Assembly (NCBI RefSeq): GCF_963921235.1
Contig: NC_086104.1
Span: 45,570,001 to 45,634,000 of the forward strand
Source of the DNA: Mobula hypostoma
Taxonomy: Eukaryota
Direction of reading: 5' to 3'
Length of the DNA stretch: 64,000 nt
Positions 16,913-38,199 of this stretch are shown piece by piece; the first letter of the stretch is position 1; each line of letters opens with the position of its first letter. The position numbers and the translations under genes are program-made. Below the pieces are notes generated by a model. It saw only the letters and a program-made list of their open reading frames with translations, did no database searches and was not told the origin of the DNA.

Positions 16913-17368
16913 CAAGACCATAAGATATAGGAGCAGAATTAGACCATTTGGTCCATTGAGTCTGCTCTGTCATTTCATCATGGTTGATCCATTTTTCCTC
17001 TCAGCCCCAATCTCCTTCCTCCCCTCCCCACTCTCCCGAATCCTAATCAAGAATCTATCAATCTCTGCCTTAACTGCCTGTGGCAAAGAATTCCACTGAT
17101 TCACCACTCTCTGGCTAAAGAAATGCCTCTCCATCTCCATTCTAAAAGGATTCCCTCTATTCTGAGGCTGTGTCCTCTGGACTTAGACTCTCCCAGCATA
17201 GGAAACACCTCTCCATATCCACTCCATCAAGGCCTTTCACCATTTGATAGGTTTCAATCAGGTCACCCTTCATTTTTCTGAATTCTTGTGAATACAGGCC
17301 CAGAGCCATCAAACGCTCTTTACGTGATAAGCTGTTCAATTCTAGAATTATTTTCGTGAACCTCCTTT
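16913..17368 (-). mobile_element. CR1 LINE 3' fragment
   Basis: ERLMALGLYSQEFRKMKGDLIETY; tail seen as agaccataagatatagg on the + strand. Confidence 0.88.
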
Positions 17369-21013: not shown

Positions 21014-21446
21014 ACTTCCCATCTGTTATGTCTTACGGTCACTGCTCCCACTCAATTTTTCTCCCTTAATTTTGTTTCTATTTTTTATTTCAATCCACAA
21101 TGGCAATGACCCTCTGAAATTTCCTCATCAGCTCCTTACAAAGGTTTGAAGGTGCTGTCCTGCTCTCTTATATTCCTTGTATTTTGCTGCAGATAAACAG
21201 GATTTTGGAATCTAACAATGCACACCAAGACGTTCAGATCTGTGATTTTCATCTTCTCATGTGAATGGTATAGGTGTCCTGTGCAGAAGGGGGCCATGAC
21301 AACACATGATGCTTGCTCCCTTTTATTGGAGAACTGCTCAAGTTGGACCAGACTGTGGAGTCCAACACCAAAAGCTTTTATTTGAGTATTGGGCAAGGAG
21401 AGATTAGAGGGGTCAGTTTTCTCCTGCAATCCTCCAGTACTCCTGT

Positions 21447-22061
21447 TTGAGTACTGTTGGGGGGGACAGCTTACCTGGGGGAAGCGACAGTGGCCGTGCC
21501 GCCGGCACAGAGTCCGGCCCTGTAGCTCAGAAGGGTAGGGAAAGGAAGAGGAGGGCAGTTGTGATAGGGGACTTGATAGTAAGGGGGTCAGATAGGCGAT
21601 TCTGTGGATGCAGTCCAGAGACCCTGATGGTAGTTTGCCTCCCTGGTGCCAGGGTCCGGGATATTTCTGATCGTGTTCAAGATATCCTGAAGTGGGAGGG
21701 TGAGGAGCCAGAGGTTGTGGTACATATAGGTACCAATGACATAGGTAGGAAATGGGAAGAGGTCCTGAAAGGAGAATATAGGGAGCTAGGAAGGGAGTTG
21801 AGAAAAAGGACCGCAAAGGTAGTAATCTCGAGATTACTACCTGTGCCACGCGACAGTGAGAGTAGGAATGCGATGAGGTGGAGGATAAATGCGTGGCTGA
21901 GGGATTGGAGCAGGAGGCAGGGATTCAAGTTTTTGGATCATTGGGACCTCTTTTGGCGCAGGTGTGACCTGTACAAAAAGGACGGGTTACACTTGAATCC
22001 TAGGGGGACCAATATCCTGGCAGGGAGATTAGCGAGGGCTACTGAAGTGACTTTAAACTAG
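21447..22061 (+). pseudogene. CR1 ORF1 fragment, SGNH/GDSL esterase-like domain
   Basis: VIGD(L)IVRG, CLPGA, VHIGTND, DGLHLN blocks; the catalytic Ser position reads TTG (Leu), consistent with TCG CpG decay; no native start. Confidence 0.9.
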
Positions 22062-25000
22062 AATGGTTGGGGGGTGGGAATCAAATTAAAGAAGCTAGGC
22101 GAGAGGAGGTTAGTTCACAAGAGGGGGATGGGAACCAGTGCAGAGAGACAGAGGGGTGTAAAGTGAGGGTAGAAGCAAAAAGTACAAAGGAGAAAAGTAA
22201 AAGTGGCAGGCCGACAAATCCCGGTCAAGCATCTAAAAGGGCCACTTTTCAACATAATTGTATAAGGGCTAAGAGAGTTGTAAAAGAGCGCCTGAAGGCT
22301 TTGTGTGTCAATGCAAGGAGCATTTGTAACAAGGTGGATGAATTGAAAGTGCAGATTGTTATTAATGATTATGATATAGTTGGGATCACAGAGACATGGC
22401 TCCAGGGTGACCAAGGATGGGAGCTCAACGTTCAGGGATATTCAATATTCAGGAGGGATAGACATGAAAGAAAAGGAGGTGGGGTGGCGTTGCTGGTTAA
22501 AGATGAGATTAACGCAATAGAAAGGAAGGACATAAGCCGGGAAGATGTGGAATCGATATGGGTAGAGCTGCGTAACACTAAGGGGCAGAAAACGCTGGTG
22601 GGAGTTGTGTACAGGCCACCTAACAGTAGTAGTGAGGTCAGAGATGGTATTAAACAGGAAATTAGAAATGTGTGCAATAAAGGAACAGCAGTTATAATGG
22701 GTGACTTCAATCTACATGTAGATTGGGTGAACCAAATTGGTAAAGGTGCTGAGGAAGAGGATTTCTTGGAATGTATGCGGGATGGTTTTTTGAACCAACA
22801 TGTCGAGGAACCAACTAGGGAGCAGGTTATTCTAGACTGGGTATTGAGCAATGAGGAAGGTTTAATTAGCAATCTTGTCATGAGAGGCCCCTTGGGTAAG
22901 AGTGACCATAATATGGTGGAATTCTTCATTAAGATGGGGAGTGACATAGTTAATTCAGAAACAAAGGTTCTGAACTTAAAGAGGGGTAACTTTGAAGGTA
23001 TGAGACGTGAATTAGCTAAGGTAGACTGGCAAATGACACTTAAAGGATTGACGGTGGATATGCAATGGCAAGCATTTAAAGATCGCATGGATGAACTACA
23101 ACAATTGTTCATCCCAGTTTGGCAAAAGAATAAATCAAGGAAGGTAGTGCACCCATGGCTGACAAGAAAAATTAGGGATAGTATCAATTCCAAAGAAGAA
23201 GCATACAAATTAGCCAGAAAAAGTGGCTCACCTGAGGACTGGGAGAAATTCAGAGTTCAGCAGAGGAGGACAAAGGGCTTATATAGGAAGGGGAAAAAAG
23301 ATTATGAGAGAAAACTGGCGGGGAACATAAAAACTGACTGTAAAAGCTTTTATAGATATGTGAAAAGAAAAAGATTGGTTAAGACAAATGTAGGTCCCCT
23401 ACAGACAGAAACAGGTGAATTGATTATGGGGAGCAAGGACATGGCAGACCAATTGGATAATTACTTTGGTTCTGTCTTCACTAAGGAGGACATAAATAAT
23501 CTTCTGGAAATAGTAGGGGACAGAGGGTCCAGTGAGATGGAGGAACTGAGCAAAATACATGTTTAGTAGGGAAGTGGTGTTGGGTAAATTGAAGGAATTA
23601 AAGGCAGATAAATCCCCAGGGCCAGATGGTCTGCATCCTAGAGTATTTAAGGAAGTAGCCCAAGAAATAGTGGATGCATTAGTGATAATTTTTCAAAACT
23701 CTTTAGATTCTGGACTAGTTCCTGAGGATTGGAGGGTGGCTAATGTAACCCCACTTTTTAAAAAAGGAGGGAGAGAGAAACCGGGGAATTATAGAGCAGT
23801 TAGCCTAACGTCGGTGGTGGGGAAACTGCTGGAGTCAGTTATCAAAGATGTGATAACAGCACATTTGGAAAGCGGTGAAATCATTGGACAAAGTCAGCGT
23901 GGATTTGTGAAAGGAAAATCATGTCTGACGAATCTCATAGAATTTTTTGAGGATGTAACTAGTAGAGTGGATAGGGGAGAACCAGTGGATGTGGTATATT
24001 TGGATTTTCAAAAGGCTTTTGACAAGGTCCCACACAGGAGATTAGTGTGCAAACTTAAAGCACACAGTATTGGGGGTAAGGTATTGATGTGGATAGAGAA
24101 TTGGTTAGCAGACAGGAAGCAAAGAGTGGGAATAAACAGGACCTTTTCAGAATGGCAGGCAGTGACTAGTGGGGTACCACAAGGCTCAGTGCTGGGACCC
24201 CAGTTGTTTACAATATATATTAATGACTTGGATGAGGGAATTAAATGCAGCATCTCCATGTTTGCGGATGACATGAAGCTGGGCGGCAGTGTTAGCTATG
24301 AGGGGGATGCTAAGAGGATGCAGGGTGACTTGGATAGGTTGGGTGAGTGGGCAAATTCATAGCAGATGCAATTTAATGTGGATAAATGTGAAGTTATCCA
24401 CTTTGGTGGCAAAAATAGGAAAACAGATTATTATCTGAATGGTGGCCGATTCGTAAAAGGGGAGGTGCAACGAGACCTGGGTGTCATTATACACCAATCA
24501 TTGAAAGTGGGCATGCAGGTACAGCAGGCGGTGAAAAAGGCGAATGGTATGCTGGCATTTATAGCGAGAGGATTCGAGTACAGGAGCAGGGAGGTACTAC
24601 TGCAGTTGTACAAGGCCTTGGTAAGACCACACCTGGAGTATTGTGTGCAGTTTTGGTCCCCTAGTCTGAGGAAAGACATCCTTGCCATAGAGGGAGTACA
24701 AAGAAGGTTCACCAGATTGATTCCTTGGATGGCAGGACTTTCATATGAAGAAAGACTGGTTGAACTGAGCTTGTATTCATTGGAACTTAGAAGATTGAGG
24801 GGGGATCTGATTGAAACGTATAAAATCCTAAAGGGATTGGACAGGCTAGATGCAGGAAGATTGTTCCCGATGTTGGGGAAGTCCAGAAGGAGGGGTCACA
24901 GTTTGAGGATAAAGGGGAAGCCTTTTAGGACCGAGATTAGGAAAAACTTCTTCACACAGAGAGTGGTGAATCTGTGGAATTTTCTGCCACAGGAAACAGT

Positions 25001-25100
25001 TGAGGCCAGTTCATTGGCTATATTTAAGAGGGAGTTAGATATGGCCCTTGTGGCTACGGGGATCAGGGGGTATGGAGGGAAGGCTGTTGCAGGTTTCTGA
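22046..25100 (+). pseudogene. CR1 ORF2 (APE endonuclease + reverse transcriptase), one frameshift and one nonsense codon
   Basis: NARS, GITETW, VYRPP, MGDFN, SDH (EN); [32 protein letters not shown] (RT). Extra T near 23562; TAG at 24360-24362 in place of Trp. Confidence 0.95.
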
Positions 25101-26668
25101 GTTGGATGATCAGCCATGATCATAATAAATGGCAGTGCAGGCTTGAAGGGCTGAATGGTCCTACTCCTGCACCTATTTTCTATGTTTCTATGTTACTCAC
25201 TCTGAGACTGAAAGCTACACACCTCTTCACATCGGGCACTCTGAATTTTTTCATAGGCATTCTCCAGTAGGGCTTCCAGCACGTTTAGAGGTGTGATTGA
25301 CAGTCTTTTGCATGGCAGCACATTAACCACATTTTATTTCAGGAGCCTCACATGAACCACAGAGCAGCCTATTCTATGTGGCATTTAAAGTGACTTGCGC
25401 ATAACTGCAATTAGTAAGGAGCAAGTAATTTGAATTAGTTTGAAAGTGCTTTTGCATGCATTGCAGTAAATAACCTGCATCTTTGCTTTCTGGGTTCCAT
25501 TAAAGAAAACAATTTTGAGGTCTCATCTGAATAATGATCAGAAATGTTGTCCACTTTTGAAGCTGATCTGGCCCCCATTTTCTGTAATGGATTCAAAACC
25601 AAATAGAAGAAACCTTTTAAGTAGGGCAAGGTTTGGCCTTTCTGAAATGATCGGCTTTCATGTGTGCAGCCTTCACTATTTTTTGCAGCATGGCCCAGGC
25701 CCATTGTTAAAGACTTGGCTTCAAAAATGCTTGCACAATGATTGATGTCACTGCTGCACACCAAGTGTCCTTCATGCATATGCTTATTACACAAATAAAA
25801 AAAATCCCAAATTTTAATATGCCCTAAAATTAATTTAACAATTAATTTTAATACACTATTCATTCCAAACACAGAATGATGATTTCCAGCATTGACCTAA
25901 TAAATTATTCAGAATGAGTCCCAGCACATATTGAACTTTGTGGGAACAGGTCACCAAGTTGGGGCAGGAAAATCCATATAGAGGTGCAAGAAAATTTAAA
26001 GAACTGCAGCAGCAATTACAGGAATGTGGCTGCACCGGATGATAAAAATTGTTGCAGCCTTTCCAAGGGCTGAAAATATTTGAAAACTTGGCCAAATATT
26101 GAAATGTAATTGCCAAAAGCTATTGCTGGAAAAATAAATGTCCAGGAGAGTGATGGAGTAGTGGAGACCCTGAACCTCGCATTTAATGATTTGGTGAAGT
26201 AAAGATCTAATGAGATTGATTCAATTTGGCAATTCCAAATAACTTTTTTCAGAGGACGCCAGTGCAACCTGACTGTGCACACTAATCACAGGACTTTGAA
26301 ACAGATGGTGTGCCTTAAGGAAAGTTTCATGTGTTGACTATCCAACAGCCCTATTTACCAGATAATTATCTAGTTATTAATGCCATTAGTATTGCCTGTT
26401 CCATTGCGTTTTGCCCTCTCAGGCAAGCTCTCGCACAATCATGCAGCTGTTTCATTTCTCATGCACGTATATTTTACAACAGGAAGCAATATTAGATCCG
26501 CAACTGAGGGCTGATATTATAAGCACAAATGGATTCGTGCAAAACAGTGTAACAAAAGCTCTGTCCCTAGTTAATATGTGGTCCATTCGGCCCACAATGC
26601 TGTGCCGAACATGTACTGACTTAGAAATTTCCTAGGGTTACCTATAGCCCTCTATTTTTCTCAACTCC

Positions 26669-27309: not shown

Positions 27310-29108
27310 CTTCATACACATACAGTGTAAAAAAGAGGTGAGAATGGCTCTCAGACCACAGGAAAACAATGCCAGAGAAGTAGTAATGGGGGACAAGGAA
27401 ATGGCGCATGATTTGAATAAGTATTGTGCATCAGCCTTCACTGTGGAAGGTATTAGCAGTATGGTGGAGGTTCCAGGTGTCAGGGGTCATGAAGTAAGTG
27501 ATGTAACCATAACTAGAGAAAAGTTTCTTGAGAAAATGAAAGATCTGAAGGTAGATAAGGCAACTGAACGAGATAGTGTACAACATAGAGTTCTGAAAGA
27601 GGTGGCTGAAGAGATTGTGGAGGCATTAGTAATGATCTTTCAAGAATTGCTAGATTCTGGAATGGTTCCGGAAGACTGGAAAATTACAAATGTCACACCA
27701 CTCTTCAAGAAGGGAGAGAGATAGAAGAAAGGAAGCTATTCACCAGTTAGTCTGACCTCAGTGGTTGGGAAGATGTTGGAGTCGATTATTAAGGATGAGG
27801 TCTCAGGGTACTTGGAGGCACATGATAAATTAGGCCGTACTCAACATGGTTTCCTCAAGGGAAAACCTTGCCTAATAGATCTGTTGACATTCTTTGAAGA
27901 AGTAACAAGCAGGATAGAGAAAGGAGAATTGGTTGATGGTATGTACTTGGATTTACAAAAGGCCTTTGACAAGGTGCCATATATGAGGTTGCTTAACAAG
28001 CTATGAGCCCATGGTATTACAGGGAAGATTCTAGCATGGATAAAGCAGTGGTTCATTGATAGGAGGCAAAGATTGGGAATAAAGGGAGCCTTCTCAGGTT
28101 TGCTGGCAGTGACTAGTGGTGTTCCACAGGGGCCGTGTTGGGACTGATTCTTTTTACATTATATGTCAATGATTTGAATGATGGAACTGATGGTTTTGTT
28201 CCAAAGTTTGCAGATAAATATGAATGTAGGTGGAAGGCAGGTAGTTTTGAAGAAGTCGAGAGACTATGGAAGGTGTTAGCCAGATTAGGAGAATGGGCAA
28301 AGAAGTGGCAGATGGAATACAGTGTCACTAATTGTATGATCGTGCACTTTGGCAGAATAAATGAAAGGGTGAGTATTTTTTCTGAATGGAGAGAAAGTAC
28401 AAAAAATGGAGATGCAAAGGGACTTGGGAGTCCTTGTGCAGGATTCCATAAAGGTTAATTTTCAGGTTGAGTCTGTGGTGAGGAAAGCAAATACAATGTT
28501 AGCATTAATTTCAAGAGAACTAAAATATATAAAAGGAAGGATGTGATGTTGAGACTTCATCAAGCACTGGTGAGAAATTTCCTGGAGTATTGTGAACAGG
28601 TTTGGCCCCTTTATCTTACAAATAATGTGCTGAAGCTGGAGAGGGTTCAATGGAGGTTCACAAAAATGATTCCAAAATTGAATGGTTTGTCGTATGAGGA
28701 GCTTTTGATGGCTCTGTACCTATATTCACTAGAATTCATAAAAATGGAGGTGACCTGATTGAAGCCTATTGAATGGTGAAAGGCCATGATGAATGGATGT
28801 GGATAGGATGTTTTCTATGGTGGGAGAGTCTAAGACCAGAGGACACAGCCTCAGAATAGAAGGGTGTCCTTTTAGAATGGAGATGGGGAGGAACTTCTTT
28901 AGCCAAAGGGTGGTGGATCTGAGGAATTCATTGCCATATGAAGCTGTGGCAGCCAAGTCTTCATTTATATTTATATCATAGCTTGATAAATTCTTGATTG
29001 ATCAGGCTATGAAGGGATTTGGGGAGAAGGCAGGAAACTGGAGCAGAGAGGAAAATTTTATTAGTCATGATGAAATGTCCTAATTCTGCTCTTGTATCTT
29101 ATGTTCTT
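27310..29108 (+). mobile_element. CR1 ORF2 RT-to-tail fragment, decayed
   Basis: VPEDWKITNVTPLFKKG, QHGFLKGK, YLDLQKAFDKVP, KFAD, RNFFSQRVV; tail tcttatgttctta. Confidence 0.93.
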
Positions 29109-33749: not shown

Positions 33750-34870
33750 AGAGACCTAAGATATAGGAGCAGAATTAGGTAATTCAACCCATCGATCTGA
33801 TCCACCATTCCATCATGCTGATTTATTATCCTTCTCAACCCCATTATCCTGTTATCTCCCTGTAACCTTTGACATCCATATTTAACAGAAACCTATCTAC
33901 CTCTGCTTTAAGTGTACCCAATGACTTGGTCTCCACATCTGTCTGTGGCAATGAATTCCACAGACTCACCACCCTCTGGCTAAAGCAATTCCTCCTTATC
34001 TCTGTTCTAAAGGGGCATCCCTCTTTTCTGAGGCTATGTACTCTGGTCCCAGACTCCCCCACTATAGATATCATCCCCTCCGCATCAACTCTATCTAGGC
34101 CTTTCAATAGTTGATAGGTTTCAATATGATCCTCCCCCATTCTTCTAAATTCCAGTGAATTATCAAACACTCCTCATGTATTAACCCCTTCGTTCCCATA
34201 ATCATTCTTGTGATCATCTTCTGGGCACTCTCCAACAGCAGCGCATATTTTCTTAGATAAAAAATCCAAAACTGCTCACATTTCTCTAAATGTGATCTGA
34301 CCAATGCCTTATAAAGCCTCAGCATTACATTCCTGCTTCTATGTTCCAGTCCTCTCAAAAGGAATGCTAACATTTGCCTCCCACAACACCGACTCAACCT
34401 ATAAGTTAACCTGCATGAGGACTCCTAAGTCCCTTTGCACTTCAGATTTCAGAATTTCCTCTGTTTAGAAAATAACAATGCTTTTAATCCTTCTACCAAA
34501 GTGCATGATTATACACTTTCCTGCACTATATTCCATATGCCAGTTCTTTGCCCATTTCCTAACCTGCCTAGATCCTTCTGCAGCCTTACTGTTTCCACAA
34601 AACTACCTGCCCTCCATCTATCATTGTATCATTAACAGACCTAGCCTCAAAGCTATCAATTCTTTCATCCGAATCATTGACATATAATATGAAAAAAATG
34701 TTCCCAATACTGAACCCTGTGGAATACTACTAGTCACTGGCATCCAACCAGAGAAGACCCACTTTATTCCCACTCTTTGCCTCCTGCCTGTCAGCTAATT
34801 TCTCCTGCTAATATTTTTCCTATAATATCACGAGCTCTTATCTTGTTTGCAGCCTCATGTGTGGTATCTT
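33750..34870 (-). mobile_element. CR1 3' fragment
   Basis: LRLYKALVRSHLE, RRNCFSQRVVSLWNSLP; tail at 33750-33770. Confidence 0.9.
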
Positions 34871-35598: not shown

Positions 35599-36712
35599 AT
35601 AAAACTTTGCATTAGTTACTAATATTTAGCAATGGAGGAACTCATCTAGTATACACTGCAGTGTTCTTTTGAATGGCTAAATGAACAAACTCAGCACAGA
35701 CACCTGAAAAATAAGACCATAAGATATAGAAGCAGAATTAAGCCATTTGACCCATTGGGATGCTCTGCTATTTCATCAATTTTCCTCTCAGCTCCAATCT
35801 CATGCATTCTCCCTGTATATCTTCATGTCCTGACCAATCAAGAATCTATCAACCTCTGTCTTAAATATACATAAAGACTTGGCTTCCACGTCTGCCGGTG
35901 GCAAAGAATTCCACAGTTTTACCACCCTCTGGCTAAAGAAATTCCTCATCTCCATTCTAAAAAGACACCTCTCTATTCTGAGGTTGTGTCCTCCGGTCTT
36001 AGATTCTTCCATCATAGGAAACATCCTCTCCACATCCACTCTATCCACTTCATCATTTGATAGTTTTCAATCAGGTCACCCCTCATTGTTCTGAATTCTA
36101 GTGAATACATTTCCAGAACCATCAAACATTTTTCATATGACAAGCTATTCAATCCCAGAATTATTTTTGTGAACCTCCTTTGAACGCACTCCAGTTTCAG
36201 CACATCCTTTCTAAGATAAGGATTCCAAAACTGCTCACAATACTCCAGCCGAGGCCTCACAAGTGCTTTATGAAGTCTCAACATTACTTCCTTGCTTTTA
36301 TATTCTAGTTCTCTTGAAATGAATGCTAACATTATATTTGCTTTCTTCATCACAGCAGACTCAACTTGCAAATTAGCCTTTATGGAATCCTGCACCAGGA
36401 CTCCCAAGTCCCTTTCCACCTCAGTTTTTTGTACTTTCTCTCCATTTAGAAAATTCAACCCTTTCATTTTTTTCTGCCAAAGTGCATGAACATACACTTC
36501 CTGACATTGTATTCCATCTACCCATTCTTGGCTATTTTCCAAATCTGGCTAAGTCTTTCTATTGCACCTTGTCTTCCTCAAAACTAACTTCTCCTCCACC
36601 TATCTTCATGATGTCTGCAAACTTTGCCACAAAGTCATCAATTCCATCATCCAAATCATTGACATATAATGTAAAAAGAATTGGTCCCAACACAGACTCT
36701 TGTGAAACACCA

Positions 36713-37280
36713 GCAACACACATCAAAGTTGCTGGTGAACGCAGCAGGCCAGGCAGCATCTCTAGGAAGAGGTACAGTCGACGTTTCGGGCCGAGACCCT
36801 TCATCAGGACTAACTGAAGGAAGAGCTAGTAAGAGATTTGAAAGTGGGAGGGGGAGGGGGAGATCCAAAATGATAGGAGACGACAGGAGGGGGAGGGATG
36901 GAGCCAAGAGCTGGACAGGTGATTGGCAAAACGGATATGAGCGGATCATGGGACAGGAGGCCCAGGGAGAAGGAAAAAGGGGAGGGGGGAAACATCTCAG
37001 AGGATGGGCAAGGGGCATAGTCAGAGGGACAGAGGGAGAAAAATGAGAGAGAGAGAAAGAATGTGTGTATGTAAATAAATAATGGATGGGGTACGAGGGA
37101 GAGATGGAGCATTAGCGGAAGTTTGAGAAGTCAATGTTCATGCCACCAGGTTGGAAGCTACCCAGACGGAATATAAGGTGTTGTTCCTCTAACCTGAGTG
37201 TGGCTTCATCTTTACAGTAGAGGAGGCCGTGGATAGACATATCAGAATGGGATGTGGAATTAAAATTTAATTTAAAATTA
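36713..37280 (-). mobile_element. PLE 3' fragment with intact hammerhead motif, inserted in CR1
   Basis: Nearly identical to 48840-49382; 8-bp TSD aaacacca (36705-36712, 37281-37288). Confidence 0.93.
36776..36811 (-). ncRNA. Minimal type I hammerhead ribozyme motif
   Basis: agtc-CTGATGA-a-gggt ctcg gccc-GAAA-cgtc-gact. Confidence 0.8.
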
Positions 37281-38199
37281 AAACACCACTAGTCACCACT
37301 GTTCAACCAGAAAAGGCTCCCTTTATTCTATTCTTTGTCTCCTGCCAATCAGCCACCACCTTATCTATGATAGAATCTTCCCTGTAATACTATAGGTTTG
37401 TAGCTTGTTAAGAAGTCTCATGTGTGGCACCTTGTCAAAGGCCTTTTGAAAATCCAAGTACACAACGTTAACCAATTCTCCTTTCTCTATCCTGCTTGTT
37501 ACTTCTTCAAAGAATGTCAACGGATCTGTCAGGCAAGATTTTCCCTTGAGGAAACCATGCTGATTATGACCTATCATGTATCTCCAAGTACCCTGAGACC
37601 TCATCCTTAATAATTGCCTCCAACATCTTCCCAACAGCTGAGGTCAGACTAACTGGTGAATAGCTTCCTTTCTTCTATCTCTCTCCCTTCTTGAAGAGTG
37701 GTGTGGCATTTGCAATTTTCCAGTCTTTTGGAATCATTCCAGAATCTAGTGATTCTTGGAAGATCATTACTAATGTCTCCACAATCTCTTCAGCCACCTC
37801 TTTCAAAACCCTGGGATTTATACCAGCTGGTCTAGGTGACTTATCTGTCTTCAGACCTTTCAGATTCCCAAGAACCTTCTCTCTAGTTATGATAACTTCA
37901 CACACTTCATGACCCCTGACACCTAGACCTTCCACCATACTGCCAGTGTCTTTCACAGTGCAGACTGACAGAAGATACTTAATTCAGTTTGTCCGCCATT
38001 TCGTTGTTCCCCATTACAACCTCTCCAGCATATTTTTCTAGCAGTACAATATCCATTCTTGCCTCTGTATTACACTTTATGTATCTGAAAAAACATTTGG
38101 TATCCTCCTTAATATTATTGGCCAGCTCACTTTTGTATAATGGACTACTTTCATACAATACTTTTGACAATTGTATCCTCCAAATTTTCATTTTCTTTG

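Follow-up and report, generated by a model that had tools for sequence, protein, structure and literature searches.

The ORF1/ORF2 junction of a CR1-type LINE family in Mobula hypostoma carries a virus-like slippery heptamer, T_TTA_AAC, directly in front of the ORF1 stop codon, and a short G-rich motif behind it. Judged by comparison across families and species, this junction signal is a real, deeply conserved feature. ORF2 is probably translated by programmed −1 frameshifting at the heptamer, which would yield an ORF1-ORF2 fusion protein. The shift is supported by conservation at synonymous sites, by a frame that stays fixed over seven linker lengths, by the absence of an AUG in 5 of 8 families and by probable heptamer swaps in distant relatives.

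The CR1 copy and its junction in the window

The window is the whole stretch of DNA that was analysed, 64,000 nucleotides of contig NC_086104.1 (positions 45,570,001 to 45,634,000 of the forward strand, assembly GCF_963921235.1), and positions are counted from its first letter. The features of the element are as follows.

21437..25192, + strand: dead CR1-type LINE copy, 5′ end lost within ORF1
21437..22061, + strand: 3′ part of ORF1, SGNH/GDSL esterase (PF13472, E 1.5e-15)
21438-21442 and 25194-25198: TACTC, 5 bp, possible target duplication or microhomology
22043..22045, + strand: TGA ending the −1 frame, two codons 5′ of the heptamer
22052..22058, + strand: slippery heptamer T_TTA_AAC, in ORF1 phase
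22058..22294, + strand: hydrophilic linker, open in the −1 frame alone (41–103 codons by family)
22059..22061, + strand: ORF1 stop TAG, directly 3′ of the heptamer (TAA in other families)
22063..22065, + strand: ATG in the +1 frame, followed by TAA after six codons (no such ATG in other families)
22069..22079, + strand: conserved, unstructured G5-N2-G3-A motif, candidate stimulator, beginning 11 nt past the heptamer
22123..22133, + strand: second G motif, the donor family's junction motif at the recombination point near 22119
22295..22909, + strand: APE endonuclease domain (PF03372), in the −1 frame
23769..24302, + strand: reverse transcriptase domain (PF00078), beyond the frame break
25177-25192, + strand: 3′ tail, TTTCTATG twice

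The element displays the traits of CR1, namely an esterase ORF1, an ORF2 with APE and reverse transcriptase, a short tandem 3′ tail, 5′ truncation and no LTR. Its 5′ boundary at 21437 is common to 11 of 29 sister copies, and the start codon and the N-terminal third of ORF1 are absent. ORF2 suffers from a frame break near 23560–23566 and a stop at 24360–24362. The window copy cannot be active, and the question is therefore about its family. The named protein nearest to the window ORF1 is from Mobula (91%), followed by those of skate, sawfish and stingray, and named CR1 elements from both rays and sharks have the same junction.

The window family is a chimera, with 88% identity to one family up to 22118 and 90–95% identity to another from 22119 on. 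The join near 22119 adds 54 nt in frame, retains the −1 frame and has left the G motif of the donor at 22123. The nearest relatives of ORF1 and ORF2 of this family differ (L187, L191; recombination at the G motif). More decayed fragments of CR1 ORF2 lie on both strands of the window at 17067–17303, 27533–28973, 33894–34790 and 35847–37851, with 64–74% identity to the main copy.

ORF1 ends in ACT TTA AAC TAG, which places TTTAAAC (22052–22058) in X_XXY_YYZ phase, and all coordinates given for this end by the first-pass annotation were verified. The TGA at 22043–22045 closes the −1 frame, thus a start of ORF2 further upstream is impossible. ORF2 occupies the −1 frame, opens past this TGA and overlaps ORF1 by 16 nt, also as described before, and the reading TTT AAA CTA GAA TGG TTG GGG continues into the endonuclease (PF03372). 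Among the 16 ATGs in 21900–22760, just the one at 22697 is in the ORF2 frame, in agreement with the annotation; it stands 210 codons past the TTG at 22067 and deep within the endonuclease domain, past the first endonuclease motifs. The two G tracts that had been pointed out were located at 22065–22078 and 22123–22132.

A family consensus with one fewer G had been considered, since this would bring the ATG at 22063 into the ORF2 frame. The G-run length is constant in close copies and the genome-wide spacing counts agree, showing that this ATG is out of frame throughout the family and not just in the window copy. The heptamer is unchanged and the G run has the identical length in 30/30 close junction copies, which are the best 30 of 986 candidates (40 scored). 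Heptamer, stop and G motif together occur 18,101 times genome-wide at the spacing of the window. The same motif one base shorter, counted with a looser pattern, occurs 1,630 times, and one base longer 853 times, while reversed-pattern controls give 0–1 matches. The junction feature exceeds chance.

Conservation of the junction in this genome and beyond

Copies were collected by the esterase motif 5′ of the site, which avoids circularity and gave 12,110 matches genome-wide. Sampling took the 30 that come first along the genome, 50 hand-chosen for diversity from the 70 after them, and 10 from protein searches; a further sample of 60 loci was obtained with two divergent protein queries. A usable segment came from 157 of 180 loci, and the segments matching the endonuclease fall into 34 clusters, 9 of them with at least 3 copies.

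The conservation check that had been suggested for the junction was run across these families, and TTA and AAC are the last two ORF1 codons in 9/9 multi-copy families. The codon preceding them encodes T, D, G, S, A or V, yet it ends in T in 9/9 families. The remaining 14/14 invariant columns other than Trp and Met in the last 54 ORF1 codons use 2–3 codons each. Synonymous variation is thus present in 14/14 other columns, compared with 0/4 for the two heptamer codons and the two G-motif codons (Fisher p 3e-4, a guide only as the families are related). The stop is at the expected place in 22 of the 34 clusters; with one vote per cluster, these keep the seven letters of the heptamer 22, 22, 20, 22, 22, 21 and 20 times. 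The stop adjoins the heptamer in 8/9 families and is TAA instead of TAG in 3/9; in one three-copy family, decay hides the stop and the modal linker length.

Downstream of the heptamer, a T at +6 and G5-N2-G3-A from +11 are conserved. The −1 reading of the G motif is Gly-x-Gly, in which both Gly codons are GGG in 9/9 families, and the flanking codons end or start with G regardless of the residue encoded. The GGG invariance and the flanking G indicate a constraint on the RNA. The heptamer and the G motif are conserved at the nucleotide level, beyond protein coding.

Single copies are less regular. Of 79 sampled copies, 51 have the heptamer exactly in place and in phase, 8 have it out of phase and 20 lack its intact sequence, and the endonuclease is in the −1 frame in 43/69; such counts fit the decay of the copies. 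One old family, at roughly 45% ORF1 identity, retains the exact in-phase site in 7/15 decayed copies; 2 others have it shifted by one base, and the frames of this family are scrambled through decay. The LN residues lie 22–39 residues downstream of the DxxH motif. Since this distance varies, LN tracks the stop and not the fold.

A constant −1 frame had been proposed as a further check. The modal distances from stop to endonuclease are 125, 125, 128, 140, 182, 194, 236 and 308 nt, all 2 mod 3, and the −1 frame is therefore preserved throughout eight families with seven distinct linker lengths. Among copies of modal length, 70/82 have a linker open in the −1 frame, 1/82 in frame 0 and 0/82 in +1. 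On the other side of the heptamer, the −1 frame is closed 3–6 codons upstream in 7/8 families. No in-frame ATG exists ahead of the endonuclease at the family level in 5/8 families; the other 3/8 have one in the linker, at differing positions, in one case as TAATG. The family L065-L094 combines a TAATG stop-start overlap in the ORF2 frame with an intact heptamer, and it could use both mechanisms, a frameshift and a SART1-like restart.

Read-through of the stop and +1 or −2 shifts were rejected because those frames are closed. Slippage on the G run as a way to fuse the ORFs was rejected as well, as the stop precedes the run.

The ORF1 proteins of other species extend the comparison. In the first search set 42/52 reach the ORF1 end, and 38/42 terminate in LN*. 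New representatives of 50% clusters reach the end in 94/144 cases, with LN in 51, QGN in 9, SKN in 2, other N in 3 and otherwise in 29. The LN* proteins that carry a species name belong to turtles, a lizard, a swallow and an eel. The residue before LN is E, Q, K, M or W, whose codons never end in T, in 0/38 and 1/51 of these proteins, versus about 15% nearby. The QGN* and SKN* ends fit G_GGA_AAC and A_AAA_AAC and, as read from the proteins, are probable heptamer swaps in distant relatives. Passages of PMC5009743 list both of them, together with U_UUA_AAC, among the shiftiest heptamers. Four distant ORF1s (P0097, P0145, P0151 and P0144) end in FFH*, FFR* or LEN*; their protein ends suggest that they may use U-rich or G_GAA_AAC sites.

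The supplement of PMC13343379 was also searched for the site, over the opening 400 letters of each of its sequences. TTTAAAC followed by TAG or TAA occurs there 20 times, a raw count without denominator, and 17 of the sites are at the ORF1 end by eye. The species are tortoise, alligator, crocodile, bowfin, bullfrog, elephant shark, coelacanth, stingray, sawfish, catshark and dogfish. The bearded dragon, with a CR1 in which the heptamer precedes TGA, brings the total to 12 species. A G run mostly comes next, and two sites are clearly without it. Five synonymous alternatives of the heptamer gave 13 matches in the same 400-letter stretches, with 0 at a CR1 ORF1 end. Two dogfish elements of this supplement, SquAca_CR1-3 and CR1-18, have TTTAAACTAR and then a purine-rich stretch also in the 5′ region, ahead of ORF1. 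Such an upstream copy was not seen in 21 longer stretches of the present genome, except one TTTAAACTG.

Other searches added little. The searchable files of the PMC4316615 supplement gave two matches, both within ORF2. A metagenome scan for DNA of non-shark relatives found 4 loci, none with an ORF1 C-terminus; two viral scans gave no match, nor did the protein query P0069 against this genome at E 1e-60. A weak search of longer homologues (2 matches) contained no whole natural fusion of esterase, endonuclease and reverse transcriptase.

A stingray gene model, P0216, runs from the esterase in frame via the −1 reading of the junction to the start of the endonuclease, and it probably represents a mutated single copy. 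Among the proteins P0013, P0036, P0037 and P0016, pieces of CR1 ORF1 pass as isoforms of the host genes RPS24 and TMEM204, and one bears the label Pseudomonas aeruginosa, likely a contamination.

Proposed mechanism and alternatives

During translation of ORF1, tRNA-Leu and tRNA-Asn would slip from UUA/AAC to UUU/AAA, and the product would read ...EVTLN-LEWLGGGN.... The pause would probably arise from slow termination at the adjoining stop and/or from a protein on the unstructured G5-N2-G3, rather than from a pseudoknot. The expected output is much ORF1 protein and little fusion of ORF1, linker, endonuclease and reverse transcriptase. Through the fusion, the enzyme would enter ORF1 particles in a constant, small proportion, in the manner of Gag-Pol.

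The first-pass annotation had suggested both a −1 shift and a G-quadruplex stimulator. The shift is well supported by the comparison, but the quadruplex is not. Just the G5 and G3 runs are conserved, instead of four G tracts, and GG at 22065–22066 is not kept across families. Two conserved runs do not allow an intramolecular quadruplex. G4Hunter-type maxima are 1.1–1.5, and the whole strand is rich in G. The second tract, which had been noted near 22122, turned out to be a recombination relic of this family alone.

A stem-loop or pseudoknot is a usual part of canonical −1 sites, therefore its absence here counts against a frameshift. For a stem-loop 3′ of the site, 10/11 representative copies have z values near 0 or positive, no better than shuffles. 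The alignment of junctions yields 0 consensus base pairs and no stable first stem with folding tools, which omit pseudoknots, and Rfam has no match in 21900–22400. The best duplex sites for a long-range partner of the G motif do not recur over 21 longer stretches, of which many are truncated. Binding of a protein to the G motif is a fair guess, suggested by a distance from the heptamer equal to that of the PRRSV CCCANCUCC motif. It is plausible that the adjacent stop codon, which adjoins the heptamer in 8/9 families and in the LN* protein ends, adds a pause.

Other observations also speak against the frameshift or the fusion. The 29 of 94 distant ORF1s that do not end in N count against the frameshift reading. 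In passages of PMC3708506, ORF1 functions are argued to need separation from ORF2p, which is a point against a fusion. According to parts of PMC13343379, ORF1 is lost in many CR1s, thus the fusion is not required for the function of ORF2p.

Termination at the TAG or TAA, followed by a restart few bases on at an AUG or near-cognate codon of the −1 frame, is an unlikely alternative; it would produce a separate ORF2p, with the conserved motifs as the restart signal. In its favour, the G motif contains UGGGA, which is similar to the restart motif of caliciviruses, but calicivirus restart motifs lie upstream of the stop, whereas the CR1 G motif is 3′ of it and lacks the U in 3/9 families. A −1-frame ATG or near-cognate codon (TTG, ATT, AGG or ATG) is found 1–3 codons past the stop in 9/9 families (ATG 1/9, near-cognate 8/9), and one family has an in-frame TAATG, for which the UAAUG of SART1 is a precedent in passages of PMC3894237. 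However, the candidate start shifts its position and is AGG in two families. Reinitiation also does not predict the in-phase X_XXY_YYZ, the T that ends six different codons, or the QGN* and SKN* ends.

It is very unlikely that there is no recoding at all, with Leu-Asn kept for the esterase fold, Phe-Lys-Leu-x-x-x-Gly-x-Gly kept for the overlapping ORF2 N-terminus, or everything kept by shared descent. In favour of this, the families share ancestry, and most of the seven letters would be fixed if they had to encode both FKL and LN. Yet the window family has just two codons, neither of them a start, between the −1 stop and Phe, which rules out a translation of FK from upstream. Neither does LN, at 22–39 residues from DxxH, hold a fixed structural position, and the neighbouring synonymous sites vary.

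Least likely of all is a separate ORF2 message made by splicing (TAG or CAG|G as acceptor) or from an internal promoter (TTTAAA as a TATA-like box): an acceptor-like TTTGCAG|G does follow the stop in several families and TTTAAACTAR recurs in the 5′ region of the two published dogfish CR1s, but CAG is present in just 5/9 families and absent from that of the window, the stop is TAA in 3/9, 0/15 listed joints in four public contig sets (RNA status of the runs guessed) are GT..AG into the junction, and both models would work without a heptamer in ORF1 phase.

The frameshift reading can be widened, which we do tentatively. Esterase CR1s may have been using the −1 shift since before the split of sharks and bony vertebrates, swapping U_UUA_AAC, G_GGA_AAC and A_AAA_AAC. 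The shift would be driven without structure by the adjacent stop and by the G motif, to which a protein of the host or the ORF1 protein would bind; this type of stimulator would be new, and the product would be an uncut, Gag-Pol-like fusion.

Comparison with known systems

The window element shares the SGNH esterase ORF1, the APE-RT ORF2 and the short tandem 3′ tail with the canonical vertebrate CR1 described in parts of PMC13343379. CR1-group elements dominate most vertebrate genomes, according to the same source, and passages of PMC3894237 describe the way in which LINEs translate ORF2 as important and still open. If the frameshift is true, CR1 ORF2 is misannotated wherever it was started at an internal ATG, and the CR1 enzyme carries the esterase module of ORF1. 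A very old, high-copy vertebrate element would then use virus-style recoding, perhaps with a structure-free stimulator.

The main text of the 2026 survey (PMC13343379) does not contain frameshift, overlap, translation or start codon. The word frameshift is absent from passages of PMC13343379, PMC3905857, PMC4120745, PMC3708506 and PMC3894237, and CR1 is absent from the first 300,000 of the 449,034 characters of PMC5009743. No earlier report of a CR1 frameshift was found in a literature search that included passages of PMC11835228; an earlier mention is possible in the first papers on chicken and turtle CR1 or in Repbase Reports, which lay outside this search.

SART1, with its UAAUG, and mammalian L1, with reinitiation, are bicistronic LINE RNAs like that of CR1, in which translation of ORF2 depends on translation of ORF1 (passages of PMC3894237 and PMC5009743). 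In both, ORF2p is a separate protein that begins at a start codon adjoining or following the stop, whereas 5/8 CR1 families have no AUG. TRE5-A and TRE3-A of Dictyostelium are APE-type non-LTR elements that are said, in a passage of PMC5911963 that names no shift site, to need a −1 frameshift for ORF2. They belong to another clade, have another ORF1 and reside in an amoeba. The gag of HeT-A likewise depends on a frameshift.

The ORF1a/1b junction of coronaviruses and arteriviruses and retroviral gag-pol resemble CR1 in the in-phase X_XXY_YYZ (U_UUA_AAC) at the end of ORF1, the short overlap and the polymerase ORF in the −1 frame (passages of PMC5009743). CR1 differs from these sites in having no pseudoknot or stem-loop 5–9 nt downstream and a stop that adjoins the heptamer, and its host is a non-LTR retrotransposon without a protease to cut the fusion. 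The nsp2 shift of PRRSV, in which nsp1beta and PCBP act on CCCANCUCC, relies on a short, unstructured motif of low complexity 11 nt 3′, the same distance as that of the CR1 G motif (passages of PMC5009743). The CR1 motif is G-rich and the PRRSV motif C-rich, and their likeness is positional only. Recoding by a −1 shift is itself known, with TRE5-A and TRE3-A as the non-LTR precedent.
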